From an uncultured Candidatus Peribacteria bacterium (lineage in GTDB: Bacteria; Patescibacteriota; Gracilibacteria; UBA4473): DNA of 46,590 bases. Where the stretch lies: NCBI GenBank assembly GCA_964344165.1, contig CAYFMH010000002.1, positions 1 through 46,590 on the forward strand, read 5' to 3'. This document shows, one piece after another, positions 11,133-42,200 of this stretch. Below the pieces are notes generated by a model. It saw nothing but the letters and a program-made list of their open reading frames with translations. It ran no database searches and was not told the origin of the DNA. The position numbers and the translations under genes are program-made. The number at the start of each line of letters is the position of its first letter. Positions within the stretch are counted from its first letter, which is position 1.

Positions 11133-11720
11133 ATGGCTGAAAAAGGACTGAAGAGTTGGTGGGGGGAGCTCGGAAGTGAGGGGAAAGCAGTCGTTCTGTG
11201 TGTCTTCGTCGTTGTCTGTATCGTCATAGGAACCCCTACCTATGGCTATTACGATAATCAGCAGGCTTGGGAGGAATATGCGCCTGCATTCGCTCAATAC
11301 GAAAAGAACACAGGGTATCTCACGACCAACATAACTCCACTAGGGGAGGAGCTTTGGGAGTCCACAGAGTTGGAGAGTGCTCGAAACCTAATCGGGGAAC
11401 TTCTTCCGGTCATGGAAGGACGGGTAGAAAAGCAGTTGATTGCCAAACTTCGATGGAGTGATCGACTGCTTGCGAAGGCGGAGCAGAGCCAACTGGCCAT
11501 TGACGACAAGACAGCATTGAGTTTTGCTAAGGCAATGGGCTCCACTATAACTTCGTTCAAGTATGAAAAACCGCAGGAACCCGCTCCTCTTTGGTTGGCA
11601 CTGATCGGTTGGCTGGCGATTGGCGTCATAGCGGCAGTGGTATTTATTTGGGTGGGAATTTTCTTGTACGACAAAATCGAAAACCTTATATTTTCCTGGA
11701 GAGCTGCCCGCCAAAACTGA
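11133..11720 (+). CDS. Hypothetical membrane protein with two TM segments
   Basis: ATG at 11133 with AAAGGA about 8 nt upstream. Hydrophobic segments VVLCVFVVVCIVIG and LWLALIGWLAIGVIAAVVFIWVGIFL. Followed by a terminator. Confidence 0.6.
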   Translation: MAEKGLKSWWGELGSEGKAVVLCVFVVVCIVIGTPTYGYYDNQQAWEEYAPAFAQYEKNTGYLTTNITPLGEELWESTELESARNLIGELLPVMEGRVEKQLIAKLRWSDRLLAKAEQSQLAIDDKTALSFAKAMGSTITSFKYEKPQEPAPLWLALIGWLAIGVIAAVVFIWVGIFLYDKIENLIFSWRAARQN

Positions 11721-12971: not shown

Positions 12972-13010
12972 TAAAAATTTTGTTTAAACTGGCGCAGTTT
13001 ATACGTTTTT

Positions 13011-13039
13011 TTGACTTTTTTATTAAAGATAAATACATT
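13011..13039 (+). promoter_or_regulatory. Sigma70-like promoter of hicB-hicA-lgt, giving a near-leaderless transcript
   Basis: TTGACT (13011-13016), 17-nt spacer, TACATT (13034-13039). The hicB ATG lies only 10 nt downstream. Confidence 0.35.
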
Positions 13040-13048
13040 TTAATCACA

Positions 13049-13255
13049 ATGAATATCTCTTACGTCATTTGGGCAGAAGACAATGGGTTTGTGATCCGTT
13101 GTTTGGAATATCCAGTTGTCACCCAAGGCAATACCAAAGAAGATGCGATTGAAAGTTTGAAGGAGGCGGTTGAATTATATCTCGAAGAAGAGAGTGATTT
13201 TGAGTCGCGTTCGATTGAAAATTTTGAAACTGGTAAACTTCTTGTTAATGCCTAA
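13049..13255 (+). CDS. hicB: HicB-family antitoxin (UPF0150-like)
   Basis: 68 aa: YVIWAEDNGFVIRCLEYPVVTQGNTKEDAIESLKEAVELYLEE. Overlaps the hicA start by 8 nt. Confidence 0.75.
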   Translation: MNISYVIWAEDNGFVIRCLEYPVVTQGNTKEDAIESLKEAVELYLEEESDFESRSIENFETGKLLVNA

Positions 13256-27024: not shown

Positions 27025-27066
27025 ATCCCGAGTCCTCGGGATGAAATTCTGGAAGGATCCGCCTTC
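27025..27066. repeat. Copy B of the intergenic palindromic repeat family
   Basis: atcccgagtcctcgggatgaaattctgg-aaggatccgccttc. The core atcccgag/ctcgggat is a perfect inverted repeat. Confidence 0.6.
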
Positions 27067-27164: not shown

Positions 27165-27186
27165 ATCCCGAAATCTCGGGATGAAA
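27165..27186. repeat. Copy C of the palindromic repeat core
   Basis: atcccgaaatctcgggatgaaa is 19/22 identical to copy B. It is followed by a perfect hairpin, cgtcgtc-tgc-gacgacg, abutting the tRNA 5' end. Confidence 0.6.
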
Positions 27187-27209: not shown

Positions 27210-27299
27210 GGAGAGATGGCGGAGTGGTCGAACGCGCACGCTTGGAAAGCGTGTGTACGGGCAACCGTACCGAGGGTTCAAATCCCTCTCTCTCCGCCA
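27210..27299 (+). tRNA. tRNA-Ser (anticodon GGA), CCA encoded
   Basis: Acceptor stem GGAGAGA/TCTCTCC. Anticodon stem cacgc/gcgtg with loop TTGGAAA. Long variable arm gtacgg-gcaa-ccgtac. T arm gaggg-ttcaaat-ccctc. Discriminator G plus CCA. Confidence 0.95.
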
Positions 27300-27344
27300 A
27301 GTGGTGCACGAATGGCACCTGATTCTCACTCACTTAGGGGAGTT

Positions 27345-27380
27345 GAACAGGTGGATTTTTGGCCTGTTCGAATTTGTTTG
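27345..27380 (+). terminator. Hairpin plus T-rich tail downstream of tRNA-Ser
   Basis: gaacagg-tggatttttgg-cctgttc (perfect 7-bp stem) followed by gaatttgtttg. Confidence 0.45.
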
Positions 27381-27462
27381 AGGCTTTTGTTGATTGATAT
27401 TGGATTCTGAAGGGTTCGAATCCTACACACTTATGACAGTTGTGCACTAAGAGCAATCTTTG

Positions 27463-29817
27463 CTATTGGTATTTTCTCCTCAATTTTTCCATATCTTCTT
27501 CGTGTCTTTTCTCTTCTATTTCAACGTTTTGCTCTAAATATTTTCGATACTCGCTTACAAATTCTTTCTCTTTTTTATCTTTCAAGTTCCAACTATCTAC
27601 GTCTTCATCCAAGGTTTTTATCTTGGCTCGATATGCATTTGCCGTAATAGCTTCGCCAACACTTCCTGAAACCATTCCAGTATTCCCAAGGAAACACTTA
27701 CAATGCGTCCATATTTTTTTGTTTTTTGGGAGTTTTTTTACAGTTCGAATTACAAGTTTTTTTAGCATACCTCCCTGATACCATTGAAATATTGGAGCTA
27801 TATACTTATTCCATTTAGCTATACTTCCTTCGTCAATCACCTCATTCATTTTCTCTTCTAAATATCCTTCGGTGAGTCCAGGGTAAAGTGCATGAAGGAG
27901 TATGGCGGCTTTCCAGTTGCTTTTCTTGTTAAACCACAGCCAAATAGCATCAACTATTTCTTTTTCTTTTTCCTTTGCTATATCAAATAAATGTGATGGG
28001 CGGGTTGGAATTGCAGAGTACTTCCAGTTTTCTTTTCTTTTTCTCTCTTCTCTCTGGATTCTTTTACCAAAAAATTCAACTAACTTTTGTGGATAGTTAG
28101 AGGTTAAGATTTTTAGCACATATTCTTCGTGGTAATTAATGTCATCTATTTCGAGGAATCCCTTTAAAATAATATCCCATTCTTTTTCGTTCAGTGTATT
28201 AAAGATAGTCTTTGTATCTTTTTCTCCATAAAACCAGTTAGCCCACCCATAAAAATTTATCTTTGTTAGTTCTTTGATGAGCTCCAGAAAGAATTCTTTT
28301 TCTTCTAAGTTCTCAAATCCAATGGTTAGCAATAAATTGTATAGTACATCTTTTTTTTCTTTAGGATCTCTTCTTGTTTTTATCTTAGAAAACAGGGATT
28401 TGGCTGTTGATATTTCAATTAATGGGTTTCTTCGTAAGGCATAAGCGATTGATAACAAGTTTTTACCTTTTGAAATCCATTGGTTGATGATCTTTTCTGC
28501 CTCCTTTCTTTTGTTTGATTCGAATAATCCGGCAATTAAGACACCAATAAATTCCTTTAGCCTGTTTACTTCTAGAAGCTTTAGAGCAAGATCAGGTTTT
28601 TTCTTTCCAATTAGTTTCAATAGTTCATTAAAATAATAGAACTTTCCAATATCACTCAGCGTCTTCTGGGTTTCAGCAAATGCAATAATTCTATTTTTCC
28701 ACTTTGATTCAGTAGCTTCCTTTATGGATTTTAAATATTCATACACCTTTTCTTTTCTAAACTCTTCTGTTTCTCCAAATTCTAAATCTTTTCTAAATTT
28801 TCGATCATATCCTACTAGGACTCTATATATTTGATATTCCTTATTAGCTTTTAAAAGCTTCCAAAAAACCTTAAATTCTTCTATATTGTCCTCCTGAAAC
28901 TGGTTTTCTCCCCATGTGACTTTATCTTCTAACTCAGAAAGAATTTCGAACTGAGCATTTGGGATAACTTTTTCATTATAGAACTTTAAGATTGATTTAG
29001 TGTTTTCTTTTACTAGATCCCTCATATCACCTCCATGCTGAGAATCATAGGTTGCGGCATTTAGTGTTTGGATAACAACTATTTGGTCAGCTGGATTTGT
29101 TAACTGTAAGTAAAGTTTTTTGAGAAAGTTAATAGCTTCTTCTCGAATATTCTTTATTTCGTCATCAGCTTTTAAACCACCACTATGAAAAGTAACGGTT
29201 TGGAAGTCCCTCCATGTAGCTCCTTCAAAATCGGGACTTAAAATACTTTTCAATCCTGTACTTAGAAAAATAAGATATTTTTCATTTTTACTTTTTGACC
29301 AGGCTTTTATAGAGTTTAAAAATTTATTTTGAGGTAAAAATCTAATTTTATTTAGTGCCTGAAAGTCATATTTACAAAATTGCCCCACTATTTCTAGTGA
29401 CTTTTCTCTTACAACAGAGCTTTCATGATTTGAGTATCGAGCTAATAACTCGATAACTTCTTCTGATTCTAGATATTTAATTTGTCCTAATAATTCTACA
29501 CATTTAACAAGTACTTCTTCATGAGTTTTGCCGGGGATAGGGCCAAATTGAGTAATCTGGTCTTTAGTAGGGATAGAATCGCTTAAGTAAATTTTCTCAA
29601 TCATAACTAGAGCCTCTTTTGAAATGGGATAGATAAATAAGCTTAATTCCTCCAGTTTTTCTAATAATTCATCATTATCTTTGAACTTTTCATTTTTTAA
29701 TTTATCTAAATCCTCTTGTAACTCTTTTAGAAAAAATTTACGGATTTCTTCGTTACCTTCTATGTAGTAACTGTCTGAAAGTCTTTGTAAAAATATCTTT
29801 TTTTGTTCAGTTCCCAT
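27463..29817 (-). CDS. Hypothetical 784-aa all-alpha (HEAT/ARM-like repeat) protein
   Basis: The ATG overlaps the stop of the upstream gene by 11 nt. K/E/L-rich helical repeats, with one HEAT-like unit (ELLARYSNHESSVVREKSLEIVGQF). A weak HKD-like string, HCKCFLGNTGMVSGS, lies at nt 27661-27705. A 60-nt sample at 28501-28560 has 20/60 G+C. Confidence 0.75.
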   Translation of the reverse strand: MGTEQKKIFLQRLSDSYYIEGNEEIRKFFLKELQEDLDKLKNEKFKDNDELLEKLEELSLFIYPISKEALVMIEKIYLSDSIPTKDQITQFGPIPGKTHEEVLVKCVELLGQIKYLESEEVIELLARYSNHESSVVREKSLEIVGQFCKYDFQALNKIRFLPQNKFLNSIKAWSKSKNEKYLIFLSTGLKSILSPDFEGATWRDFQTVTFHSGGLKADDEIKNIREEAINFLKKLYLQLTNPADQIVVIQTLNAATYDSQHGGDMRDLVKENTKSILKFYNEKVIPNAQFEILSELEDKVTWGENQFQEDNIEEFKVFWKLLKANKEYQIYRVLVGYDRKFRKDLEFGETEEFRKEKVYEYLKSIKEATESKWKNRIIAFAETQKTLSDIGKFYYFNELLKLIGKKKPDLALKLLEVNRLKEFIGVLIAGLFESNKRKEAEKIINQWISKGKNLLSIAYALRRNPLIEISTAKSLFSKIKTRRDPKEKKDVLYNLLLTIGFENLEEKEFFLELIKELTKINFYGWANWFYGEKDTKTIFNTLNEKEWDIILKGFLEIDDINYHEEYVLKILTSNYPQKLVEFFGKRIQREERKRKENWKYSAIPTRPSHLFDIAKEKEKEIVDAIWLWFNKKSNWKAAILLHALYPGLTEGYLEEKMNEVIDEGSIAKWNKYIAPIFQWYQGGMLKKLVIRTVKKLPKNKKIWTHCKCFLGNTGMVSGSVGEAITANAYRAKIKTLDEDVDSWNLKDKKEKEFVSEYRKYLEQNVEIEEKRHEEDMEKLRRKYQ

Positions 29818-30679
29818 TTAAAATTTGGTTAGTAATTTCTTCAAGAGAAAGTTTTTTCTGTTTCACTAGGAAATTTATTTTCTCTCTTCCAAGCTTTTCA
29901 TCTTTGAAAAATATTAATTCTCCTTTCTGTATAAGTATTTTTTGTTTTATTAGTTCGTCTAATAATACTTTTTCTTTTTCTAGAGTGATGTTTAAAAAAT
30001 TCCTTATGCGACTTCTTAAAGATTCATTTTTTAAATCTAAAGGAGAAAGGAGAAATAGGATTACTTCAAACAACCATAAAGTTTCTTCTAAGTAAGAAGA
30101 AATTTTAGAAATAATTTTTTTATTTTGTTCCAATTTTTCTGAATTATTATTTTCTGAAGATTGGGGAAGTGATTCAATGCTTTCTCTAAATTTTTTTTCT
30201 TTGTCTAATCGAACTTTTCGAACAGCTCTAGGGATTTCCACTAAACACTTTGTAGTAAAGCTTTCGTTTTCATTTGATTCTTCATATTCAAAGAACTGTA
30301 GTACTTCTCCTAGCCTTTCTATCACCAAAGTTCTTCCTTCACAAGAACTATTTGGGACAAAGCCAATTACAGGTTTCCCTTGTGAAATTAATTCTTTTAT
30401 AAGGTCTAATTCGTGAGAAAACCCATTTCGTCCTCTCTCACTTTCAATAATTATTACAATTAATGAAGCCTCTCGAATTGCAGAGTCGAGAACTTCTTCT
30501 TGAAAGGCGAGATGAATACCATCAATTAAGGTGTCACAATCTCTCGGAAGCAAGTGGATCCCTAGATCAACAACAGACTTTTCTATCGACTCCCTTAATT
30601 CCTCCTTTATTTTTTTAGATTTCTTCCGTGCATCCTTTGGGCGTGCAATAAAGATTGAAAAAATATTATCTTCAGACAT
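29807..30679 (-). CDS. Hypothetical 290-aa protein with an N-terminal nucleoside 2-deoxyribosyltransferase/TIR-like Rossmannoid domain and a possible C-terminal wHTH
   Basis: IFSIFIARP...AIREASLIVIIIESERGRNGFSHELDLIKELISQGKPVIGFV matches the NDT-like pattern (YxAGP ... D.GTxxElGyA..xGKPVi). The C-terminal region LDELIKQKILIQKGELIFF resembles a winged helix. Confidence 0.6.
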   Translation of the reverse strand: MSEDNIFSIFIARPKDARKKSKKIKEELRESIEKSVVDLGIHLLPRDCDTLIDGIHLAFQEEVLDSAIREASLIVIIIESERGRNGFSHELDLIKELISQGKPVIGFVPNSSCEGRTLVIERLGEVLQFFEYEESNENESFTTKCLVEIPRAVRKVRLDKEKKFRESIESLPQSSENNNSEKLEQNKKIISKISSYLEETLWLFEVILFLLSPLDLKNESLRSRIRNFLNITLEKEKVLLDELIKQKILIQKGELIFFKDEKLGREKINFLVKQKKLSLEEITNQILNGN

Positions 30680-30786
30680 ATCTTAAAGTTGTTTGGCAGT
30701 TTAAACAATAGAGTGCTAATATCAATTGTCAAAAAAGATCATAAAATTAATAACAAACCAGTCTCTGTCACTTTAGAATTTTAGTC

Positions 30787-31050
30787 TCAAAGCATTCGGA
30801 TTATTTTCTTAATATGCTTCTTCCCAAAAAACTTCCTAAACTCTTCTGGATAAACTCGTTTAAATTCACACAACACCCCCTTCAAAAATACTTGTCTTCG
30901 TTTCAAATCCTCCCCAAACTCTTCTTCAAACTTCAGGAATTCCTCTCGTTCCTTCAGAAGCTCTCGAATCAACGCCTCTCTTGGAATCCGGTGGAGATTT
31001 ATCGGCCGATTCAAAATAGCCGACTGCCAATTCTCAACGTCTACATTCAT
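30787..31050 (-). CDS. Hypothetical 87-aa protein downstream of the recombinase
   Basis: The ATG at 31050 overlaps the recombinase 3' end by 17 nt. No motif recognised. Confidence 0.4.
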   Translation of the reverse strand: MNVDVENWQSAILNRPINLHRIPREALIRELLKEREEFLKFEEEFGEDLKRRQVFLKGVLCEFKRVYPEEFRKFFGKKHIKKIIRML

Positions 31051-32332
31051 TTGAAATAGGGTTATTATTACCAATATAAATTTCTCCCCCTTGTAAAAAA
31101 AGGGTTTCTTTGAGACAGGATAGAATTTCTCGTTTTTCTGGTTTCGATCCGTTTTTCAGAATATCTTCGATATATTCTTTTGAAGTGAACTCTCTAGCAT
31201 TTCCACCAGATAATTGTTTTTGGATTCGGTTCATTTTTTCTACTTCGTGCAGAATACTTTTTTGCAATCGAAAATGGTTATCCTTGAACTGATCTACGAT
31301 CTCAGAAATCGAAATAATCAACTTTTCTTCTCGGATATATTTCTCATTGCATCGTCTAGTCCCTCCGTACTTATTGCACTTGTAGTACACATACAATTTT
31401 CCATGTCGGTTGATATGTTCGGCTCCACTAACCCCTGATCCACAAGTTCCGCACTTGAATAATCGACTAAAATAAAACTCCTTCCTACCCCATTTTCCTT
31501 TCTCTGAAGTTTTGAGGTTTTCTTGAGCAAGATCAAAGATCTCTTTGCTAATAATTGGTTTGTGTGAACCTTGATAATATGCCCCTCCATAAAGAAACTC
31601 TCCATAATAGAAGGGCTCTTTGAGTAGCCGATAAACCATGCTGAGACTGAGTTGTTTTCCGCTTAGTGATCGGAAGCCTTCATCTGTGAGATACTCATGT
31701 ACTTGTCTGCCACTGAGATTTTCTTTAGCTACGTATTCAAACGCACGTTTAATAAACGGAGCTCGTTCTTCATCTATCTCAATTTGACTTGGCTCATTGA
31801 AGTTTTGGCTTCGGATAAGTTTATATCCTAAAGGAGTCCTTCCTGGACGAGCTCCTTTTTCGCATTTAGCTCTGAGTCCTCGTTTTACGTTCTTGGCTCG
31901 ATTATCATTCTCTAACTTTGCTTGAGAGCAGAGGATCATGAGGAGAAATTTCTCATCTGGTGTGTTCGTAAAAGTTTGTCCACTGGTTTGTATTTGCTGC
32001 AGAATTCCTTGATCCATGAGATCTACTAAACGTCCTAGATCTCCTGCATTTCTACTCAACCGATCTGGGGCCCAAGTAAGAATAGCATTGAATCGTCCTT
32101 CGTTTAGCCCTTGCAAGACCTGATTATAGCCAGTTCTCAAGCCTGATTCTTTAGCAGATTTACTTTCTTTGATTGTTTCAACAATCTTTATGCCTTCCTT
32201 TTCTGCTAACTTGGTCATCTCATTGAGCTGAGACTCAATGGACAATGCCTGCCGTTCATCCGCTTCGCTGGATTTACGAGCATATAAGCAGTAACGAAGA
32301 GGTTCTTCTGATGTTAGCAATGATTTTTCCAT
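31034..32332 (-). CDS. Large serine recombinase (resolvase domain + recombinase domain + zinc ribbon)
   Basis: Catalytic N-terminus YCLYARKSSEADERQALSIESQ, SRNAGDLGRL, a recombinase domain, and C-terminal CGTCGS...YYKC. An alternative GTG start lies at 32431. Confidence 0.9.
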   Translation of the reverse strand: MEKSLLTSEEPLRYCLYARKSSEADERQALSIESQLNEMTKLAEKEGIKIVETIKESKSAKESGLRTGYNQVLQGLNEGRFNAILTWAPDRLSRNAGDLGRLVDLMDQGILQQIQTSGQTFTNTPDEKFLLMILCSQAKLENDNRAKNVKRGLRAKCEKGARPGRTPLGYKLIRSQNFNEPSQIEIDEERAPFIKRAFEYVAKENLSGRQVHEYLTDEGFRSLSGKQLSLSMVYRLLKEPFYYGEFLYGGAYYQGSHKPIISKEIFDLAQENLKTSEKGKWGRKEFYFSRLFKCGTCGSGVSGAEHINRHGKLYVYYKCNKYGGTRRCNEKYIREEKLIISISEIVDQFKDNHFRLQKSILHEVEKMNRIQKQLSGGNAREFTSKEYIEDILKNGSKPEKREILSCLKETLFLQGGEIYIGNNNPISNECRR

Positions 32333-32585
32333 TACCCTAATAGATGCCGAAGAAAGTGGCTTAGTCCAGGCTTTTTTCACCAAAAAACTCTCAAAAAAGC
32401 TTTTCTTTTTAGGGAAGTTAGTTACATTCACCTTGCGACCTTTTTCCGGTATCGAAATATTATCCTCTGGGAAACTTTTTTGTTTTCAGAGATAGCCAAA
32501 AAAGACGGGGCAATTAACCGTCCTTTACGGCTATCCGAGAGGAAAACTGGAAAAGGGTCGCAACGGATTAGTTGCCCCATTTTTT

Positions 32586-33797
32586 ATGAAAAATAACTCA
32601 AACACTCTCGGCACAAAACTCAGTTGGATATTCGGAATAATATTTTCTCTAGGAAGCCTTGGTAGTTTTTCTGAGGATCCGCTCTTAGCTACTTTCTTAC
32701 TCCTTATCGGCCTTTTCCTCATTCCGCCTATCACTACATTGATAGAGATAGAAACAGGAAAGAATCTTTCGGGAAAGAGAAAGTTGGTTATTACGATTGT
32801 TGCACTTTTTGTTTTCGGAATGCTTGCTGGTCCACAGGAAGAAACAAAAACACAAATTCAATCGACTGATTCAAAACAGGAAGAGAGGAACCTTCATAAA
32901 AAATCAGTTCCTCTTCCTAAATCAGAACCTATTAAACCGAACTCCGCTAAAAAAGAGGTAATAGAAAGTACTGTCTCATCAACCAGTAGTTCCATTCCCG
33001 TTCAACCAAAGAAAAATGTCATAGAAGAAAAAGCAGAGCCAAAAGTTGTAGTACAACCAGAAACTCCATTGAAAATTTCAGAACCAACAGGAATCCCCGT
33101 CCTAAAAATCGTAGACGGAGACACCATAGATGTCCTATACCAAGGAAAAGAAGAACGACTCAGAATAAAGGGAATAAATACCCCAGAAACCAAAGATCCA
33201 CGATATCCCGTTCAGTGTTTTGGGAAAGAAGCCAGTGCAAAAGCAAAAGAAATACTGGAAGGGAAGAATATTATGTTAGAGACAGATGGAAGCCGAGGAA
33301 AATACGGTCGTTTGTTAGCTTATTTACGCCTCCTGAACGGTAAAGATTACGGAGAAAAAATGATCCGAGAGGGATACGCCTGGCATTATCGTTCGTATTC
33401 TCATGAACGAATGGATGCCTATGATGAAGCAGAAAAATATGCTCGAGAAAACAATGCTGGCCTCTGGGCTTCTTCTACCTGTAATGGAGAAAAGAAACCA
33501 GTAAAGGAAGTAGTTGAAGAAACAAAGAAATCTGTTTCTAAAGTCATTTTGCCTCCGCCCGCTCCTCAACAAAAAGTCGAGCCAGAACCTGTTCCAGTGC
33601 CAGCTCAACCATCTGTTCAGCAAGAGTTTCAGGAAAGTATACCTTCCTATGAATGTTCACGAGATGCTTACAACTGTGGAGATTTCAAAAGGCATAGTGA
33701 AGCTCAGCAAATTTTTGAATACTGCTTTTCTACAGCAGGAGACATCCATAAACTAGATCGAGATAATAATGGTGTAGCCTGTGAATCACTCCCTTAA
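32586..33797 (+). CDS. Membrane-anchored thermonuclease (SNase) with a C-terminal Excalibur Ca-binding domain
   Basis: Three N-terminal hydrophobic segments and a low-complexity linker. SNase motifs VLKIVDGDTIDV..RLRIKGINTPE..YGRLLAYL. Excalibur motif CGDFKRHSEAQQIFEY..DRDNNGVACESL. Confidence 0.88.
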   Translation: MKNNSNTLGTKLSWIFGIIFSLGSLGSFSEDPLLATFLLLIGLFLIPPITTLIEIETGKNLSGKRKLVITIVALFVFGMLAGPQEETKTQIQSTDSKQEERNLHKKSVPLPKSEPIKPNSAKKEVIESTVSSTSSSIPVQPKKNVIEEKAEPKVVVQPETPLKISEPTGIPVLKIVDGDTIDVLYQGKEERLRIKGINTPETKDPRYPVQCFGKEASAKAKEILEGKNIMLETDGSRGKYGRLLAYLRLLNGKDYGEKMIREGYAWHYRSYSHERMDAYDEAEKYARENNAGLWASSTCNGEKKPVKEVVEETKKSVSKVILPPPAPQQKVEPEPVPVPAQPSVQQEFQESIPSYECSRDAYNCGDFKRHSEAQQIFEYCFSTAGDIHKLDRDNNGVACESLP

Positions 33798-33805
33798 TTT
33801 TATTT

Positions 33806-35356
33806 CTAAAATTTAGGGTAACGATGCTCAAAACCTGAGATAAATTCTTCAAAAGAACAACTTTGTGGGTATGAAGGCCCATCATCTATTGGTATATATG
33901 CAAAATAGGGCTCCCTTTCAGACATAATTTGATTAATGGCAATCGTTAAAGCATCGACTAGGTCATCATGCTTCTCAACTCCAAATCCCATTATTTGTTC
34001 AATAAGTTTTTCACACCCTTTTTTAGGGAATAAAACCTGTCCACTTTTTATATAGTGGTGAGTGGTACACAAGCGAGATCTCTTATCTCCAACAATAGAA
34101 ACTGGTTTTGTTAGGTATCCGTCTCGAGACATCTCTTGTTCAAATGATAGTTGGTATCCTACATTTTCAGTATAGAGTCTTACTGATTTAGGGTGATCAT
34201 AAATGATTGAAGCCAGAGCTTTGAGTCGTTCTTTTGATCCAGAAAAATCAGGCTTCCCACAGAATAAGTGTGGCAGTACATAAATCTTTTTCTTTTTCCC
34301 AATTTTATAAACCTTGAGAGGTACAAAGGCTGTATAATCAGCAGAATCTTTCTGAGAAATCGCTAAATCAGTACCAATAGCCGCAAATTTAAAATAAACA
34401 CTATTTTCTGAGTTCTCATCATGATTCTCTTCGGGGAGATCTTCATAATAGTGAATATCTCCCGGGTGAACAATTTGTCCTTCGTCAGGAACAATTCTCA
34501 GCATGAATTCTCGTTGCCAGGCTATATGATTCCCAACTCTCTTTTCTTCATCCTTGAGAGCTTTTTTGTTGGGATATTTCCCCGGCCATAAAGCTTTGTT
34601 ATTTCTCGTAATTGGATACGCTTTGTATTTACCACTCATCTCTTTTTTTCTGATTTTTTCTTTTATCCGCATGATCACAGAATCTTCATGAAGTAAATTT
34701 CCAATCATTATTAATCGGGTATTTTGATCTCCTGCAGGGATTACTTCACTCGTGAGCCAATCGTAAGTTTTATTTCTTCCTTCTGCTGTCTTAATGGTAT
34801 TCAGATCCTCAATATCATCACAGATAATGAGATCGGGACGATGCTGATTGTGCCTAATCCCCCGAACACTCTGCTCCATGGACACGGCCATAATACGTGC
34901 ATCGTGTTTGGGAATAAGGAGAGAAGAAGTACTCCACTCATCATCTTCTTTAAACGGACCAAGATCCTTTCGCAAAAGCTCATTAGACTCTAGTTCTCGT
35001 TTCAGATTCTTGAGGTGTTGCCGGGCCTGATGCAGGGTTTGACCTACGAGGAGTACGAATTTTTTTTGAGGCTTTCCAAGAATCGCCCAAAGTGGATAAG
35101 ATAAATTCACAATCGTTGATTTCCCCGATCCTCGAAAAGCAATAACCACCAAATTCTTTATCCTTTCATCTTCCGTGAGCTGAAAAATTTCCCGCTGAAA
35201 AGCAGCTGTTTGATAAGTGATGTAATGATGAAAATACGTGTGAAAGAACCAATAATGACTCTGGCTGGTTATTTCTTGGCGGATTTGGTAGTCCGTTAAG
35301 ACTTTTTCAAGGGTTTCCGGATCTAATTCGGGAATGTTATGCATTCTTTTGTTCAT
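33806..35356 (-). CDS. Phage terminase large subunit
   Basis: Walker A AFRGSGKST, Walker B LIICDDIED, C-terminal nuclease-type region. Preceded by a small-terminase-like gene. Confidence 0.85.
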   Translation of the reverse strand: MNKRMHNIPELDPETLEKVLTDYQIRQEITSQSHYWFFHTYFHHYITYQTAAFQREIFQLTEDERIKNLVVIAFRGSGKSTIVNLSYPLWAILGKPQKKFVLLVGQTLHQARQHLKNLKRELESNELLRKDLGPFKEDDEWSTSSLLIPKHDARIMAVSMEQSVRGIRHNQHRPDLIICDDIEDLNTIKTAEGRNKTYDWLTSEVIPAGDQNTRLIMIGNLLHEDSVIMRIKEKIRKKEMSGKYKAYPITRNNKALWPGKYPNKKALKDEEKRVGNHIAWQREFMLRIVPDEGQIVHPGDIHYYEDLPEENHDENSENSVYFKFAAIGTDLAISQKDSADYTAFVPLKVYKIGKKKKIYVLPHLFCGKPDFSGSKERLKALASIIYDHPKSVRLYTENVGYQLSFEQEMSRDGYLTKPVSIVGDKRSRLCTTHHYIKSGQVLFPKKGCEKLIEQIMGFGVEKHDDLVDALTIAINQIMSEREPYFAYIPIDDGPSYPQSCSFEEFISGFEHRYPKF

Positions 35357-35376
35357 GGTAAATAAAGGGTTAAAAA

Positions 35377-35772
35377 TTATTTTTTAGGAGGTAGCAAGGA
35401 ACCAAGAGAAAGAGCTTTAGTGACCATTTCTCTTTGTTCATCCGTAAGTTCTCGATCTTCTATTTTAGTCGTGACTTCAAACTTCTGTGTGTAGGACTTG
35501 TGACGGTGTTTGAGCCAAAAGATAATAGCTGTCAGGTTTTGATCTTTAATGGCGGACAACAGTTGCGATTCTGCCATATCGTTCATGAGGGAAACGCCTT
35601 CTTGTAGGGCTTCATCAGCCTCTTTTGCAAATTTATTATCCTCTTTTCGCCACCGATAATAGGTTGCTCGTCCAAGACCTGTTTTTTCACAGGCGAGTTG
35701 TATGATGGGCGTTTTCTTGAGTTGATTACATAAGGCCTCTTTTTGCTGTTGTTGTTTTTCTTCTAAAGTCAT
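35377..35772 (-). CDS. Terminase small subunit-like HTH protein (phBC6A51-type)
   Basis: GLGRATYYRWRKEDNKFAKEADEA and AIIFWLKHRHKSY. Its position directly upstream of terL supports the call. Confidence 0.65.
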   Translation of the reverse strand: MTLEEKQQQQKEALCNQLKKTPIIQLACEKTGLGRATYYRWRKEDNKFAKEADEALQEGVSLMNDMAESQLLSAIKDQNLTAIIFWLKHRHKSYTQKFEVTTKIEDRELTDEQREMVTKALSLGSLLPPKK

Positions 35773-36539
35773 GATGTAGAGGGGTTAAGAAGTACAGATT
35801 TTTGTCCGGTCAGTTTTTCCCAACGATCAATAATAACCTGACAGTATTTGGGCTCGATTTCTATCATGCGACACTTCCTCTTGGTTTGTTCACACGCCAA
35901 TAAGCATGATCCAGATCCTCCAAAACAGTCGTAGACAATATCTCCTCGACGAGTGCTATTGAGAATGAGGCGACGTAAAATAGATACTGGTTTGGTGGTT
36001 GGATGATGGATATTTTTCTTAATCTTTGGACTGATCAAAACAGACTTGTCCTGAGACTTCAGAAATTCATGCCGTCCTCGCCAACCATAAGCGATAAGTT
36101 CGTGTTGTGGCAGGTAATCCAATCGTCCGATGACCGCTCCTGTTTTGATCCACACCAGGAGTTGCGAGAGTTTGAATCCTTCCTCCACAAAAGCCTCTCG
36201 CATGGCAAACATCATCCGATCAGAATTAAATACCGCGAAGGCGTTCTTATCGGTTAGGCGATATTTGATTGGTTTGAGCCAGCCTTGAGTGAACTTTTTA
36301 AATTCTTCATCAGATTGGAAGTGATCGTTTTGGATGTGATCATGCTGAAGGCTAGATTTAGAAAATCCTTTTTTCCCTTCGATCAAATCAACTCCGTAGG
36401 GAACATCGGTGCAGATAAATTTTATTTTCTCATCCTCAAGAAGCTGCTGAACATGCTCTTTATTGCAGGCATCACCGCAAATAAGTTTATGCTCTCCGAG
36501 TTGGAAAACATCACCGAGGTTAATCAATCTTTTTGACAT
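35769..36539 (-). CDS. DNA methyltransferase (N6-A/N4-C, beta class)
   Basis: Motif IV TDVPYG comes before motif I FGGSGS. GDVFQLGEHKLICGDA N-terminus. 4-nt overlap with the downstream gene. Confidence 0.88.
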   Translation of the reverse strand: MSKRLINLGDVFQLGEHKLICGDACNKEHVQQLLEDEKIKFICTDVPYGVDLIEGKKGFSKSSLQHDHIQNDHFQSDEEFKKFTQGWLKPIKYRLTDKNAFAVFNSDRMMFAMREAFVEEGFKLSQLLVWIKTGAVIGRLDYLPQHELIAYGWRGRHEFLKSQDKSVLISPKIKKNIHHPTTKPVSILRRLILNSTRRGDIVYDCFGGSGSCLLACEQTKRKCRMIEIEPKYCQVIIDRWEKLTGQKSVLLNPSTS

Positions 36540-37812
36540 CGTATTTTGGGTTAAGAGCTAAATAACGGGCGATGATAACATCACAAAAAGCAGGATCCTT
36601 TTCGATTAGGAAAGCTCTCCTGCCAAGTTGATCACAACTAATCAAAGTACTGCCTGATCCTCCGAAGAGATCAAGGATGGAATCTCCCGGCTTGGTGCAG
36701 CGTTTGAGTGGTCGTTCGTGCAATTTGCAGGGTTTTTGCGTGGGATGGGCGTACTCTGTGGTGGGCAATCTTTTTACAAGCCAGATATCGAGAAAATCTT
36801 CGATATCATCGAGCGTTCTATTGCCTGTGCCAACTTCTGTATTGAGGATTTCTGTAAAGTTGGACGATTTGTCATTCAAATACGGTTTTCCAATGGTTCC
36901 GTACACACAGGGTTCGTAACATTTGTTGAAGGCTATTTGAGGCGTAACATTTTGGTTGTTTTTGATCCACAAACATACTCTTTGATTTTTGATACCGTTT
37001 TTTTGGTAGAGCGACTGTAGAAGTCCAATGTAGTTTTGATCACAAAAGTAAAAAATATGGGCATCCTTTTTGCAGTGAGCCAGTACATTCTGGATTGTCT
37101 TTTCTAAAAACATCCGATACTCCAAGTCGGTTTTGTTATCGTCTACTTGTTGGGAGGCATAATTTTTCGTGCCACCTAGTCCCTTTTTGTAGTCCAGCGA
37201 AATGTTAAACGGCGGATCTGAATACACCATATCAATCTTTGTTTCTCCGAGCAGCGGTTTTATCATGGCTGGATCTGTCGAATCTCCACAAATCAGTCTG
37301 TGTTTTCCAAGCTGAAATATTTCTCCTGTTTTGGTTTGTGGGTTTTTCTGAGCTTTCTCGAGTTCTTTCTTGGTATTGAATTGATCATCCTCGATTTCTA
37401 GAGCATCATCCCAAATAGTTGAAAGATCAGAATCATCAAATCCGACATCGAGCAGTAACTCTGTGTCGAACTGTTTGAGAAGTTCAAAATTCCAGTCTCC
37501 GGTGTTACGGTTGAGACGAAGGTTGAGTTCTTTTTCTTTCTCAAGATCTGGAATGTTGAGATATACCACGGGAACTTCTTTGTGTCCCAGATCTTTTGCA
37601 ATTTTGAGCCGGAAGTGTCCGCCGATAACGATGTTTTTTCGTGCTTTCGCACCATTCACGAGAATGGGATCAACCAATCCAAAGCGTTGCATGCTTTCCG
37701 TGAGTTGATCAATAGCTTCTTGATTCCATTTTCTTGGGTTGTAGGGAGCGGAGTTCAGTTCATTAATCGGAACTGACACGATTTTTAACGATGCCGGTTG
37801 TTGAGTGTTCAT
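36520..37812 (-). CDS. ParB-like nuclease domain fused to a DNA methyltransferase
   Basis: N-terminal ParB/Srx motif (YNPRKW..GGHFRLKIAKDLG). GEIFQLGKHRLICGDS. Motif IV SDPPFN, motif I FGGSGST. Confidence 0.88.
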   Translation of the reverse strand: MNTQQPASLKIVSVPINELNSAPYNPRKWNQEAIDQLTESMQRFGLVDPILVNGAKARKNIVIGGHFRLKIAKDLGHKEVPVVYLNIPDLEKEKELNLRLNRNTGDWNFELLKQFDTELLLDVGFDDSDLSTIWDDALEIEDDQFNTKKELEKAQKNPQTKTGEIFQLGKHRLICGDSTDPAMIKPLLGETKIDMVYSDPPFNISLDYKKGLGGTKNYASQQVDDNKTDLEYRMFLEKTIQNVLAHCKKDAHIFYFCDQNYIGLLQSLYQKNGIKNQRVCLWIKNNQNVTPQIAFNKCYEPCVYGTIGKPYLNDKSSNFTEILNTEVGTGNRTLDDIEDFLDIWLVKRLPTTEYAHPTQKPCKLHERPLKRCTKPGDSILDLFGGSGSTLISCDQLGRRAFLIEKDPAFCDVIIARYLALNPKYDVKKID

Positions 37813-37879
37813 ACCCCCATTATCAAAAACCTCAGGGACACCAGAGGGACAAATGGGGGGATTTCAGGGACAAATAGTC

Positions 37880-38506
37880 CTAAATGAGAACCTCAATCCG
37901 TTCTTCTGCCCACTTAAAAACAGGTCGTCTTAAAAGTGGTTTAGCTTTCCAGTTGATTCTTTTTATCACTTGTTTGAGGCGTTCTGAATCAGACAAAAAT
38001 TGCCCATAAATAGCTATTTCTACTGTTTCTCGTGAGAAAACTTTTACTGTTGGGTCTTGAAATAAGTAAGCACAAATAGTTTTTTCCATTGGGCTAAGTT
38101 GTATTTCCCCTTCGGGAAAAACTAAACTCATTGTTTTCCAATTAAAGTAGTTTTCATTCTCCTCTTTGATTTCTTTTCTTCCCTTAAGAATCCTAGCAAA
38201 AAATACTTGATCCGTAGGATGCATTGGTTTTTGGTAATAAGTTTCTACAGGTCTGTGAAATAAAACTTCCTCACTATGACAGTCTTCAAGAGTGACCTTT
38301 GACGAAGTATTATCGAGAAAGGATTTTATATCAGGAAGCGTATTGTAAAAATTAGGGAGGGATAATTGCTGGTTTATGACCTTGCACACATTGGCCACAC
38401 CCTTTAAATCAGGCAAAGAAAGCGAAACAGGTCTTGCTACTGCTTGAAGAGCTTTGGCTTGTTTGGGAGAGATTTTTCGGAAGCGTCTTTTGGTGGAGGT
38501 GGTCAT
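37880..38506 (-). CDS. Hypothetical protein with a C-terminal OmpR/PhoB-type winged-helix-like segment
   Basis: LSPMEKTICAYLFQDPTVKVFSRETVEIAIYG resembles trans_reg_C (LTpkEfeLL..L....g.v.sRe.L....wg). An alternative GTG start lies at 38521. Confidence 0.5.
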   Translation of the reverse strand: MTTSTKRRFRKISPKQAKALQAVARPVSLSLPDLKGVANVCKVINQQLSLPNFYNTLPDIKSFLDNTSSKVTLEDCHSEEVLFHRPVETYYQKPMHPTDQVFFARILKGRKEIKEENENYFNWKTMSLVFPEGEIQLSPMEKTICAYLFQDPTVKVFSRETVEIAIYGQFLSDSERLKQVIKRINWKAKPLLRRPVFKWAEERIEVLI

Positions 38507-38629
38507 AATTTCTTGTGGCACAATATTTAGATGTTTACCCTTAATGAATATACTACATATTGATTCTAAAATTACAATACCTCAAAAAAATTGAGAAAGA
38601 TTTACTTATTTTAAGAATTGAAACTGCTT

Positions 38630-39166
38630 TTAAGAACTTTTTTTCTTCTTTTTTGGTGGTGGATCTTGTCGTAATACACATGCAAGCCTAATACTAGGTC
38701 CTCCAGTTGGTTCTTCTTTTGGAGGCTCTCCTCCTAAATTTTTTGCACATCTCAACATTGCATCTGCAACCGTTTTAAACATCTTTACTTGCCCTGGAAC
38801 TTCTGAGTCATTTCGGAAATAAGTACTTGTAAAGCTGGTGCAACGATTAAGAGCACGAGGATGGCAATTTTTCGCTCCGATACACAAACATCGATCTAAT
38901 CTTCGACGAGTTCGAAGCAACCCATCATTTGGATCTAATATCCCCTCTAATTCAGGGATTTCTCTGTCTATAATCCGTCCGAGAGTTCTTAATACACGAC
39001 AAGATACAGGGTTTTCCGGTTTAGGACCAAATGGCTCTTGGTCCAAATCAGGTTGGACCTTATCTGCTAGAGCATGGAAAGTATCTTCATCAACCTGTGT
39101 TATGGCCATAGCACGAATATGTCGCTCTATTGCAACAGTTTTTTCGATGTCTTTACTTGGACTCAT
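38630..39166 (-). CDS. Hypothetical Cys-rich protein (178 aa) with a poly-Lys tail
   Basis: ATG ORF with 8 Cys, including CLCIGAKNCHPRALNRC, and a C-terminal PPPKKKKKSS. Divergent from the 1095-aa gene. Confidence 0.55.
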   Translation of the reverse strand: MSPSKDIEKTVAIERHIRAMAITQVDEDTFHALADKVQPDLDQEPFGPKPENPVSCRVLRTLGRIIDREIPELEGILDPNDGLLRTRRRLDRCLCIGAKNCHPRALNRCTSFTSTYFRNDSEVPGQVKMFKTVADAMLRCAKNLGGEPPKEEPTGGPSIRLACVLRQDPPPKKKKKSS

Positions 39167-39235
39167 AATGTAGAGGGGGTGAAATGTATTTTTACCTATT
39201 GGTTAATTGTTTTTTGCAAAAAGTCAATGAAAAAC

Positions 39236-39295: not shown

Positions 39296-42200
39296 ATGGG
39301 TGAAACACAATCAACATCTCCGAATTTTTCCGTAGATTTTCTTGATATAGAAAGGCTAGATTTCATTGATCAATTCCTGCTTGAATCAAGGAGAGCGGGG
39401 GCAACTCCGGCACTTATAGAAAGATATTTTCCTGGAATTTCCGACAAACAAGCTAGTGATATTTTAGAAGTTTTTGCTGATGGAATTGAAGCATCTGAAA
39501 GGACGAATAGAATCAGTGAAATTCTACTCGTGAGAGAAGAACCATCTCATAAAATCGCTTCTCAAGTAAGAGAGGCTTCAGAGCCGATCAAGGCACATCC
39601 TATAGTGAGGCAAATGAAGTCAATTCGAATTGCTGTAGCAACGGTTGTGGGAACCATCGGGGCGGGGCTTTCTTATTTTGCACTAAAAGACAATCTTACG
39701 AGTCTCTCCTGGGATAGGTTAGTTGATGCTGGATACTCTCCTGATAGTATTCAAGTAGGGACAATGACAATAAGTGCTATCCTTGCAGCTCTTTTTACTG
39801 GATATTTGGTAAGGACTCGAGATAAAATAGCTGATGAGTCAGCTCGACGCGGGCTTGATTTTTTGAAAGCACATAGAGAAACTTTTCGGCGAAAGCCTTT
39901 TGCAGCAGCTTTCTTTTTTTTGGCGGTTCTTTTTGGAGATGTGCCAAATGCGGTTTATGTGGCTCAATTTTATCTCGGGGATGAGGATGTAGCTCGACAA
40001 GTAGAACATTCTGGGGACGAAATTAAAAAAGCTCTTGTTTTCCTTGAAGACAATTATACTGAGGCTGCCGAAACTAGGGAAGAAGTAATGGGAAAAGGAA
40101 TTCAAAACGTAGCACAAGTTGAAATAGATGGAACTGGTCCAACAAAAACTCCGGGGGCAGGTCCTGTTTACAAAGCTCTTGTAAGTCTGGAAACAGGGGG
40201 AACAACTTGGCCTAATAATACTCCTTTTCAAGTGGCCTTGAAAAAAGTGCTTTCGCACTATGATGTTGAGGACACTGGACTTCCAAATCAGTTCAAAACA
40301 GAATTTGTTTTAAAAATGAAGGCACTTGTAGAAGGAGTAAATATTCAATTAAGTCAAAGTTTGGAAAAAATTGAGAAAATGGTGAAAAACGGAGAAAGAA
40401 GTTATGGTGTTATTTCTGCAGAATATACAAAAATTGATGAATTGCTTACTACACTACAAGGAGATATTCAACATGAGTTTGAAATAGCTGCGGAAAAAAG
40501 CGGTGAAAATGTAAAAGGGGCAGCAAAAGCAATTTATGATACGGCAAAAGAATTAGGCGGTTATCCAAACTTTGTTCCCGTCGTTGGTGGTTTAGAAATT
40601 CCTATGCCTCGGATAGAGCCGCTTTCTATAGAGGTTCCAGAAACATTTAGAGCGAAAAATACGGTTGAACTTCTCACTAATGCTTGGGCAAAAGATATTG
40701 TCGAAGGAAGTCTAGTAACGATAATCTCAATTCTTGCGTTGCTTACACTCCTTATTCAACCTACTTATGTGAGATTCATTTCAGTGGCTCTCAATGGGAC
40801 CAATAAAGACAAACAAAGAGAATATATAATGAATGCCATAAGAACTTATGAAAAACTTTTAGATAACTTTGTGGAAGCTTTAGCAAGAAATATAAATAAA
40901 AGTTCTTTTGTTCAATCTTCTTGTGGAGTTGATATCCCTTCATCTTATATAGCAGAAAAACTAAAATCCTATCTAAAAGAGGGGGTTTTTCAAAAATTAA
41001 GAACTGATGGTTTTGAATCTTTATCAATTGGAGATGTATTGAATACTTTTAAAAGATTAGAGGGATTTTTGAGTGATCCGGAAGAAATAGGTAGTTTTGT
41101 GATTTCTTTGTTTCCTCAGGGGGTGCATCCAAGCAAATGTGAACTAAACACAACGGCGATAATCAAACATATGGATGAAATGATGGGGATTAGCAGGCAC
41201 AAGGTAGCCATTTTGGCGTTAATGGATTTTTCTTCCGCTAGTTTTCAGAATGCTTCTGTTGCCTTAAGGAGAGTTGAAAAAATATTGGAAGATATTAGGA
41301 AACTCCCTTCTGCAGAAGGATGTTCTTCTGCTTTAGATAGTGAGACAAGTAGCAAATTAGTGGAAACAGTAACTTCTCTTGAACAATTTTTATTAAGGAT
41401 AAAAGAGATTTTAGAATTACAGATTTCAAAACAACAGCAAGTCAGTTCACGGAAAAAAGTAGATATTTTGGATAAGTTGGTCCTGCATAGGCGTATAAAC
41501 AAGGCTATGCAAAACACTCCTGAATATAATGAGTTGTCTCCTTCATACGGAGAACGTGATAATTGGACTATTAGTGTTTCTGGTCCGTTAAACAGATGGT
41601 ATGAAGAGATGTTTGGATCTTTGCGTCAAGTCGAGGATAGTTTGCGAGCAGAAGTTTTATCAGATGATCAAATCACGGAACAGCTCTGGAGATACACAAG
41701 AGAAGCAAAGAATCTGGAAGTTACAAAAGAGAGATTATCGACTTTTGAAGATTTAGATGTTTCAGGACAGGTGTGTTGGCTTGGGAATCAACAGAGACTT
41801 GTTTTCATGGGACGAAATATAGAGGGAGTAGAATCATCATTGGAAAAAAGAGTTCGAGACATTTTTCAAACTACTTCTGAGGATGGTGATATGAGTGAGA
41901 ATTTATTTGTAACTCTAAAAAGATTTAACACAGAGTTGTCTGGTATGGAACAATCTTGTGCACAACAAGAAGATCTTTCTAGAGAAATAACAGCCCAGCA
42001 AAGGAGGGTAGAGACATTAGTAACAAATTTAGAAAATCAACTCATGGAGGTTGGAGTAGAAGCGGTTAGGGATTTGGCAACAGCTCGAAGAAATGTGATT
42101 ATTTTTCAGGGCTTAAGAACAAATGAGAATGCCGGATTTTTAACAGAGGCATTAGGAGCCCTCGAAGAACGAGAAAAGTTGTTGGTGGCACGAGAAGAAA

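Follow-up and report, generated by a model that had tools for sequence, protein, structure and literature searches.

Why should a bacterial chromosome carry intact phage DNA-packaging genes beside a tRNA gene when no virion gene accompanies them? The question is raised by a 46,590-nt contig of an uncultured Candidatus Peribacteria bacterium (CAYFMH010000002.1, assembly GCA_964344165.1; hereafter the window). It equals contig C2 in full; the metagenome-assembled genome (MAG) comprises 1.69 Mb in 125 contigs (mean GC content 0.41, completeness ~96%). From the letters alone, an original prediction had recognised at 27,210-39,170 a tRNA-Ser-adjacent element with terminase and methylase genes, and had read it either as a recently decayed prophage or as a satellite that hijacks the capsids of a helper phage. 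The Candidate Phyla Radiation (CPR, Patescibacteria) to which such bacteria belong holds a large share of bacterial diversity in genomes of ~1 Mb, and its gene exchange and phage resistance are poorly known. We give about even chances to the reading that a phage-derived, helper-dependent (satellite-like) island, of a kind common in Patescibacteria, is integrated here and occupies the window from 27,453 to at least 39,166. The genes on which this reading turns are, from the upstream end of the co-oriented cassette to the tRNA:

36,520-37,812, minus strand: fusion of a ParB_N domain with an N6/N4 DNA methyltransferase, hereafter ParB-methylase (PF02195 and PF01555; phrog_498, 2.6e-97)
35,769-36,539, minus strand: N6/N4 DNA methyltransferase, the second methylase (PF01555, 3.1e-28; phrog_498, 2.7e-72)
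35,377-35,772, minus strand: TerS-like helix-turn-helix (HTH) protein (TerS families phrog_4044, phrog_24579, phrog_309, phrog_1482 and phrog_4102; PF13022)
33,806-35,356, minus strand: large terminase subunit TerL (phrog_38, 1.8e-82; PF17289)
31,034-32,431, minus strand: large serine recombinase (LSR; PF00239 Resolvase, PF07508 Recombinase and PF13408 Zn_ribbon_recom; phrog_95 integrase, 2.8e-65)
27,210-27,299, plus strand: tRNA-Ser(GGA), with its 3' end toward the island (ARAGORN; Rfam tRNA, 61.8 bits)

Annotation of RNAs with ARAGORN and Rfam, and of proteins with Pfam, PHROG and PADLOC, placed the named genes and the tRNA-Ser(GGA) where the prediction had put them and in the same order, with the gene overlaps of exactly 20 nt (36,520-36,539) and 4 nt (35,769-35,772) that it had reported. 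The Walker A motif GSGKST (read here as FRGSGKST) and the Walker B motif CDDIED (read as LIICDDIED) are indeed present in TerL, and the claimed absence of portal, capsid, tail and lysis genes is matched by a count of zero PHROG head, tail or lysis matches among the open reading frames (ORFs) of 27-46.6 kb. TerL combines the Walker A/B ATPase with the acidic residues of a C-terminal RNaseH-like nuclease, as expected of a terminase large subunit: it retains each of the 76 alignment columns at which 28 homologues do not vary (mean column identity 55%), D330, E397 and D464/D465/D468 among them. A PDB sequence search with TerL gave no match, and identity to the TerLs of cultured phages was at most 25%, a level that is uninformative. 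Within the family, almost every locus has TerS, 45-88% identical, as the gene just before TerL.

A TerL profile built from these 28 homologues and run against GTDB retrieved 548 species genomes. The named records are closest in Peribacteria and Peregrinibacteria and extend to Gracilibacteria, Paceibacteria, Saccharibacteria, Berkel-, Moran-, Kuenen-, Dojka-, Doudna- and Kaiserbacteria and others; the host is therefore a CPR bacterium, as the prediction had guessed. In a sample of 401 Patescibacteria genomes drawn evenly from 320 genera, TerL is carried by 45 genomes of 41 genera, and its frame is open in all matches (a single TGA in one). The island is thus widespread in Patescibacteria. Among 41 related genomes 10 carry TerL, each at a different site, and the distribution is patchy and incongruent with the host phylogeny; the element is mobile, and the worry, raised with the prediction itself, that the block might be conserved chromosome in all relatives does not apply. 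Compared with the window, G019, a genome of a different genus, has cassette proteins that are 79-88% identical (TerL 81%, TerS 88%) and a V-ATPase subunit I that is 50% identical, and the same-genus genome G001 has a cassette that is 66-73% identical and housekeeping proteins that are 78-94% identical.

The layout is as conserved as its members are scattered. In a census of the best 80 GTDB loci, a ParB-methylase lies upstream of TerS-TerL in 76 and a second methylase is present in about half, and among the 51 loci whose downstream flank is 9 kb or longer, 42 have an LSR homologue (44-66% identical) on the same strand downstream of TerL, at a median gap of 121 bp. Every related locus that was examined closely has the same co-oriented order of ParB-methylase, (methylase), TerS, TerL and LSR, namely those in G001, G019, the closed genome G016, G021, two genomes of other families (G039 and G035), an IMG/VR contig and JGI/ENA contigs. 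Clustering of all 1,484 census ORFs yielded no recurrent family that could be portal or capsid, and full-text literature searches turned up no account of such a cassette from CPR bacteria.

These results bear on the first of the two original readings, a cryptic prophage, according to which a complete temperate phage, once inserted at tRNA-Ser, was stripped of head, tail and lysis genes by recent deletion and is now eroding. The phage-derived module, whose order of ParB-methylase, methylase, TerS and TerL is that of real phage contigs, and the lack of any remaining structural gene would both be explained in this way. However, the pseudogenes and variable leftovers of a decaying prophage were not seen; instead, the same intact gene set recurs with open frames across many classes, always truncated with a recombinase after TerL and in a TerL clade of its own, and random deletions that arose independently would not have left the same genes each time. 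Moreover, the closed G016 genome has an insert of ~9 kb, flanked by an AcrB-type efflux operon on one side and tRNA-Gln on the other, whose entire content is an unknown gene, the cassette and a pair of genes for 341- and 779-aa proteins. We consider such a cryptic prophage very improbable and reject recent decay, since a whole phylum-wide family maintains the capsid-less layout together with an intact TerL.

The origin of the module is suggested by TerLs from IMG/VR. Those at least 43% identical to the window TerL come with the island layout, several with a tandem second TerL, whereas those 36-42% identical lie on contigs of temperate siphophages (L158-L194). In these sister phages, Sak4-like and O-like replication genes, a ParB-methylase, a methylase, a different TerS and TerL are followed by a portal-MuF fusion (phrog_2662, 2.6e-104), protease, major capsid protein (MCP; phrog_10), adaptor, tail protein and tape measure. 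The islands hence share with them the order of ParB-methylase, methylase, TerS position and TerL, yet have a recombinase after TerL where the phages have portal and head/tail genes, the phages having replication genes before the module. In a tree of 162 TerL sequences (FastTree), a single change separates portal-linked from LSR-linked TerLs, and the intact TerL of the window stands in the recombinase-linked clade, apart from the portal-linked phage clade. Because one change on the tree separates the two layouts, the island appears to be a long-lived lineage that arose from a phage packaging module, everything after TerL having been replaced by a recombinase.

As an observation in its own right, tandem full-length TerL pairs (TerL-TerL-LSR) occur in six GTDB loci (L063, L065, L079, L097, L104 and L113) and five IMG/VR contigs (L118, L121-L123 and L126), each copy being ~50% identical to the window TerL; many family members have such a pair.

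If structural genes existed elsewhere in the genome, the cassette could be the packaging part of host-controlled particles, as in a split phage or a gene transfer agent, and in a MAG of 125 contigs and ~96% completeness some sequence is missing. Given that the window is a whole contig, anything outside it lies on the other contigs of the same MAG. There, hidden Markov models (HMMs) of the sister-phage portal, protease, MCP, adaptor and tail proteins, run on the six-frame translation, found no structural gene, the only hit at E<=1 belonging to an unannotated family (13.7 bits, E 0.027); the HMM of the sister-phage TerS had no match at E<=1 in the MAG either, the island TerS included. The general families phrog_12 (portal) and PF05065 (HK97 capsid) were likewise absent from eight carrier genomes, among them the MAG, the closed G016 and the 5-contig G019, with positive controls. 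Hence structural genes just outside the window, which the prediction had named as a threat to itself, are not present anywhere in the MAG as far as the tested families go. Gene transfer agents are, in addition, marked by a structural cluster and vertical inheritance, whereas the island combines a patchy distribution with the absence of every tested structural family. Host-controlled particles of this kind are accordingly a scarcely probable explanation.

Phages with heads of the sister kind do, on the other hand, leave traces in these bacteria. The sister portal family occurs in 3 (strong matches) to 8 of the 401 Patescibacteria genomes, on large contigs, and one of these genomes also has an island; for this reason phages of this kind probably lysogenise CPR bacteria. 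Two apparent prophages, at ~370-384 kb of G392:C1 and ~101-112 kb of G227:C3, have the sister portal, protease and tail genes, the latter also the capsid gene, but no detectable member of this TerL family, which shows shuffling between terminase and head modules.

How the island moves is suggested by the LSR, in which resolvase, recombinase and zinc beta-ribbon domains (3.9e-21, 5.1e-16 and 5.1e-08) are joined in one protein of the 400-700-aa size of its class, the nearest solved chain being merely the catalytic domain of a conjugative-transposon recombinase. By its domains and position it is the predicted integrase of the island. We surveyed tRNA genes within 10 kb downstream of TerL/LSR in 79 GTDB loci with a callable TerL: such a tRNA is present in 23 and, in 23 of 23, lies on the opposite strand with its 3' end toward the recombinase side (Ser 10, Gln 7, Glu 4, Asp 2, Met 1). 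Upstream of the same loci there are five tRNAs only, in mixed orientation. The probable insertion sites differ, with tRNA-Ser in the window, tRNA-Gln in G016 and tRNA-Trp in G019; tRNA-Ser(GGA) itself has orthologues in 40 of the 41 relatives.

The remaining features of the region, from the tRNA outward, bear on the boundaries and the cargo:

27,300-27,452, no strand: post-tRNA block of ~155 bp, common to G001 and G024 by alignment and ending in ...GTTGTGCACTAA
27,463-29,817, minus strand: helical ORF of 784 aa (GC ~0.30-0.31; no Pfam, PHROG or PADLOC match)
29,807-30,679, minus strand: partner ORF of 290 aa, overlapping the 784-aa ORF by 11 nt (similarly low GC; no family match)
30,787-31,074, minus strand: small ORF of 87-95 aa that immediately follows the recombinase gene and overlaps it (no family match)
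32,586-33,797, plus strand: SNase/Excalibur nuclease (PF00565, 2.4e-22; PF05901; PADLOC 'SNc+LTD' candidate, 1.8e-31)
37,880-38,521, minus strand: ORFan of 213 aa upstream of the cassette (no family match)
38,630-39,166, minus strand: ORFan of 178 aa, the outermost co-oriented gene (no match in Pfam, PHROG or PADLOC)
39,296-45,290, plus strand: two giant coiled-coil ORFans of 1095 aa (with transmembrane segments) and 893 aa (no family match; GC 0.35-0.39)
45,525-46,526: mltG-like gene of the host, conserved in 8 of 8 relatives tested

The prediction had let the element start at the tRNA itself (27,210), and this needs correction. The tRNA and the next ~155 bp are common to the window, G001 and G024 up to 27,452, after which each genome continues with different, convergently oriented cargo. 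Because unrelated cargo follows a shared block in three genomes, we place the left junction of an integration hotspot at ~27,452/27,453, the insert beginning at ~27,453. The 155-bp block, which is missing in three other genera, could be host DNA, an attachment-site (att) remnant or an end segment of the element; its fold is no better than that of shuffled sequences (z = -1.0). It contains a second perfect T-loop/T-arm-like motif, GGGTTCGAATCC, at 27,412-27,423, 108 nt past the tRNA. A nearby pseudo-T-arm was considered as a rule of the family and rejected, as it was seen here and in L090 and is neither general nor significant family-wide. An empty site, sought by synteny with G001 and G024, was not found, the order around the V-ATPase gene, tRNA-Ser and mltG being rearranged, and the survey of convergent tRNAs likewise yielded neither an empty site nor an att core.

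On the other side, the accessory region may reach ~45.4 kb, because the giant ORFans are without family matches and the mltG-like gene belongs to the host; the ORFans at 39,296-45,290 are thus possibly part of the same region. The 1095-aa protein has no homologue in 40 relatives. Both independent assemblies described below break within the first 0.8 kb of its gene.

Such a patchwork could also be an artefact, either a contig that is chimeric near 27.0-27.4 kb, as the prediction itself had feared, or ordinary conserved chromosome. The adjacency of the V-ATPase gene and tRNA-Ser(GGA) does not occur in relatives, G001 having tRNA-Ser(TGA) at that place, and synteny in the genus is poor; moreover, the V-ATPase/tRNA joint at 27.0-27.2 kb is the sole joint without an independent assembly, and an exact-protein look-up of V-ATPase subunit I returned no record. 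Contigs of two other assemblies from the same project nevertheless reproduce the rest. One (L197) spans the 784-aa ORF into the tRNA, another (L033) covers the 784-aa ORF to the ParB-methylase, and two (L034 and L035) run from TerL to the start of the 1095-aa gene, so that the junction of tRNA and 784-aa ORF and the stretch of 29.2-40 kb are independently assembled and the feared chimera does not hold. With the block missing from 31 of the 41 relatives and an island beside a tRNA being the norm of the family, an artefact is hardly credible.

The AT-rich pair next to the tRNA belongs to the element. Along its entire length the 784-aa protein shows 43% identity with the 779-aa protein of G016, which is encoded after the recombinase and before tRNA-Gln, and the 784-aa protein has a homologue in G021 too; the C-terminal 80 residues of the 290-aa protein are 32% identical to the 341-aa partner in G016, the N-terminal domain being different. 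Because G016 has this homologous 341/779-aa pair at the same position, we conclude that the 290/784-aa pair travels with the element, and the 784-aa protein is, judged by these homologies, recurrent cargo of the family. In other copies the cargo comprises restriction-modification, Shedu-like, Druantia-like, NurA/HerA, TIR-SLATT and Fic genes; across the family most cargo consists of defence genes. The small ORF at 30,787-31,074 has a counterpart at the same position in G001 (68% identity over 74 aa) and an independent assembly also contains it, at 87 aa. It may encode an accessory or directionality factor.

The nuclease, a piece of accessory cargo that sits between TerL and the recombinase, has three hydrophobic N-terminal segments that form a predicted membrane anchor. 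In 7 loci an SNase homologue adjoins the cassette; that of G001 lies behind the recombinase instead. The position next to TerL on its downstream side is often filled, on either strand, by membrane-anchored nucleic-acid proteins, either SNase/Excalibur (7 loci) or cluster c4 (24 loci, e.g. L087:5712-6272), a tRNA_anti-like OB-fold protein with an N-terminal transmembrane segment. These proteins may serve superinfection exclusion or nucleotide scavenging.

Upstream of the cassette, the prediction had labelled the 213-aa ORF a winged-HTH regulator. This label could not be verified: the ORF has no Pfam, PHROG or PADLOC match, a search of 5.8 billion proteins gave no homologue, and it matches neither the profile of the upstream family c8 nor the 249-aa protein of G016. 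It is called in the independent assemblies and occupies the slot of a small, possibly regulatory upstream gene in other copies. Two independent contigs contain an exact copy of the neighbouring 178-aa ORF, joined there to the cassette and to the beginning of the 1095-aa gene. Elsewhere in the census a LexA/S24 repressor lies divergently upstream in 18 loci, and other recurrent extras are small upstream proteins and small XRE-type HTH proteins.

If the island is indeed a satellite, its gene content suggests the following cycle. The LSR would insert the element beside a tRNA 3' end and excise it again; upon infection or induction of a helper phage, the island TerS would recognise island DNA, and the island TerL would cut this DNA and pump it into helper procapsids; the methylases would modify the DNA such that it survives restriction in the next cell, and the cargo would pay the host for carriage. 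Excision, self-packaging, protective methylation and payment by cargo are all deduced from gene content and position. A satellite-type element, as the original wording had it, fits the evidence; the hijacking of helper capsids is a proposed mechanism. A wider form of this proposal holds that the islands are an ancient, phylum-wide class of satellites with a complete terminase and anti-restriction methylases, without capsid or replication genes, moved by a dedicated LSR clade to sites beside tRNA 3' ends, serving as a major vehicle of defence genes and having as helper a temperate siphophage with a sister TerL; we hold it tentatively, at somewhat short of even chances.

Several points weigh against a helper-dependent island. 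Comparison of the tRNA flank with the rest of the contig gave direct repeats at the level of chance matches only, and a displaced tRNA 3' fragment at the far end was found in 0 of 24 loci; that no att core, repeat or displaced fragment was found is, however, what one would expect if a serine recombinase is at work. None of 194 loci has terminal repeats or a circular contig, and excision, circular or concatemeric DNA and encapsidation are so far predictions. The right boundary that the prediction had set at 39,170 was not supported; the island probably extends from 27,453 to at least 39,166. In the window copy we recognised no replication gene, no helper-sensing regulator and no LexA-like repressor of the kind found elsewhere, its two upstream ORFs being ORFans without a regulator match. 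The structural search comprised two general families and one lineage-specific set, which very divergent capsids could escape, and the TerL tree is a FastTree reconstruction with some long branches. Finally, no helper was found: the apparent prophages of G392 and G227, considered as the origin of the island or as a proven helper, were rejected on account of another TerL family and no related LSR.

These points lend some weight to a different use of the same genes. The methylase-TerS-TerL operon could be an exapted terminase, an anti-phage or competition device that cuts or titrates the concatemers of related phages or blocks their procapsids, with the methylases marking self; island DNA would never be packaged, and the recombinase and a capsid-independent route, e.g. 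natural transformation, on which CPR bacteria are thought to rely, would provide mobility. Defence systems lie in or around the island at nearly every locus, and interference is plausible given that the sister phages have the same ParB-methylase/TerS/TerL module; furthermore, no replication module was found, no helper was identified, and islands (45/401) far outnumber recognisable related prophages (3-8/401). Interference and self-packaging are, however, compatible and not exclusive, and known satellites such as Staphylococcus aureus pathogenicity islands (SaPIs) and the phage-inducible chromosomal island-like element (PLE) combine both. In addition, ATPase and nuclease motifs that are fully kept together with a cognate TerS across the phylum correspond to the needs of a working packaging motor, and in the fixed order of TerS, TerL, LSR and cargo, the recombinase and the cargo come right behind the point at which packaging probably begins. 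We therefore judge an exapted terminase that never packages island DNA to be unlikely, though of appreciable probability.

Read as satellites, the islands resemble known systems in part. They are akin to phage-inducible chromosomal islands (PICIs) and SaPIs in being small, integrated, phage-derived, patchy and presumably site-specific, without tail or lysis genes and with a TerS specificity, and in having their defence cargo placed from the integrase toward the presumed att site, an arrangement that is the rule in PICIs (PMC10085698). PICIs, however, as a rule have a tyrosine integrase, AlpA/Stl regulators and a primase-replicase and use the TerL of the helper, whereas the island has an LSR, both terminase subunits and two methylases and no recognisable replication or AlpA gene; neither a primase/replicase nor AlpA was found in island ORFs or recurrent clusters, while a hijacking or packaging gene of the PICI kind (terS, ppi or cpm) is present in the form of TerS. 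Capsid-forming PICIs (cfPICIs) are the only described satellite family with terL and terS in the core (PMC10085698), but also encode capsid, portal, protease, head-tail adaptor and connector, which the island is without; capsid, portal, protease and adaptor were found neither in the window nor in the MAG, and the tested portal and capsid families are also absent from seven other carriers.

The PLE of Vibrio cholerae is a satellite that integrates via a large serine recombinase and interferes with helper packaging; its specific core genes encode a replication initiator, a nicking nuclease and functions in capsid remodelling and packaging interference. It shares with the island only the recombinase class, having its own replication module, no terminase genes and a range of one species, whereas the island family is phylum-wide and has TerS and TerL. 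Tycheposons of Prochlorococcus, likewise a bacterium with a streamlined genome, are tRNA-associated integrative islands with modular cargo, a minority with an LSR and a PICI-like subset with terS or a capsid gene; most have tyrosine recombinases and replication genes, and none has been reported with terL (10.1101/2020.12.28.424599). The PICI-like tycheposons are without extra cargo, whereas cargo is the rule in the island.

If the satellite reading is true, the islands would be a new design of phage satellite, terminase-only and moved by a serine recombinase, and, being present in about one genome in nine with most kinds of defence systems and their own packaging motor, a main route of gene flow in the phylum. 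Their recombinases form a natural series of LSRs beside different tRNA genes, of interest for understanding, and possibly using, target choice. For annotation, the family is a warning that a 'TerL + integrase' call in a CPR MAG does not, in most cases, indicate a prophage.

A few minor observations concern the surroundings and individual loci. A scan of 27-46.6 kb with Rfam, permissive mode included, found nothing but the tRNA, LOOT RNA being absent from this copy, and a scan for promoters and terminators gave no more sites than shuffled sequence. A 28.8-kb contig of G001 (G001:C12) and positions 1-27,000 of the window have in common only the V-ATPase pair, a TPP enzyme (94% identical) and mltG, in a strongly different order. 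MAG contig C10 (33.7 kb) has a GC content of 0.573, against 0.39-0.43 in the other large contigs, and is likely mis-binned. At L064 an 87-bp perfect inverted repeat (11,486-11,572 and 12,997-13,083) flanks the recombinase, its outer copy overlapping the 3' end of tRNA-Ser(GCT); an invertible segment or an assembly artefact are possible explanations. Upstream of the tRNA in the window, a palindromic intergenic element (cccgag..ctcggga...ggatccgcc) occurs at 27,025-27,066 and 27,165-27,186, and the same element follows the V-ATPase gene and tRNA-Ser(TGA) in G001 (L017, ~2850-2885), a small repeat that is genus-wide.

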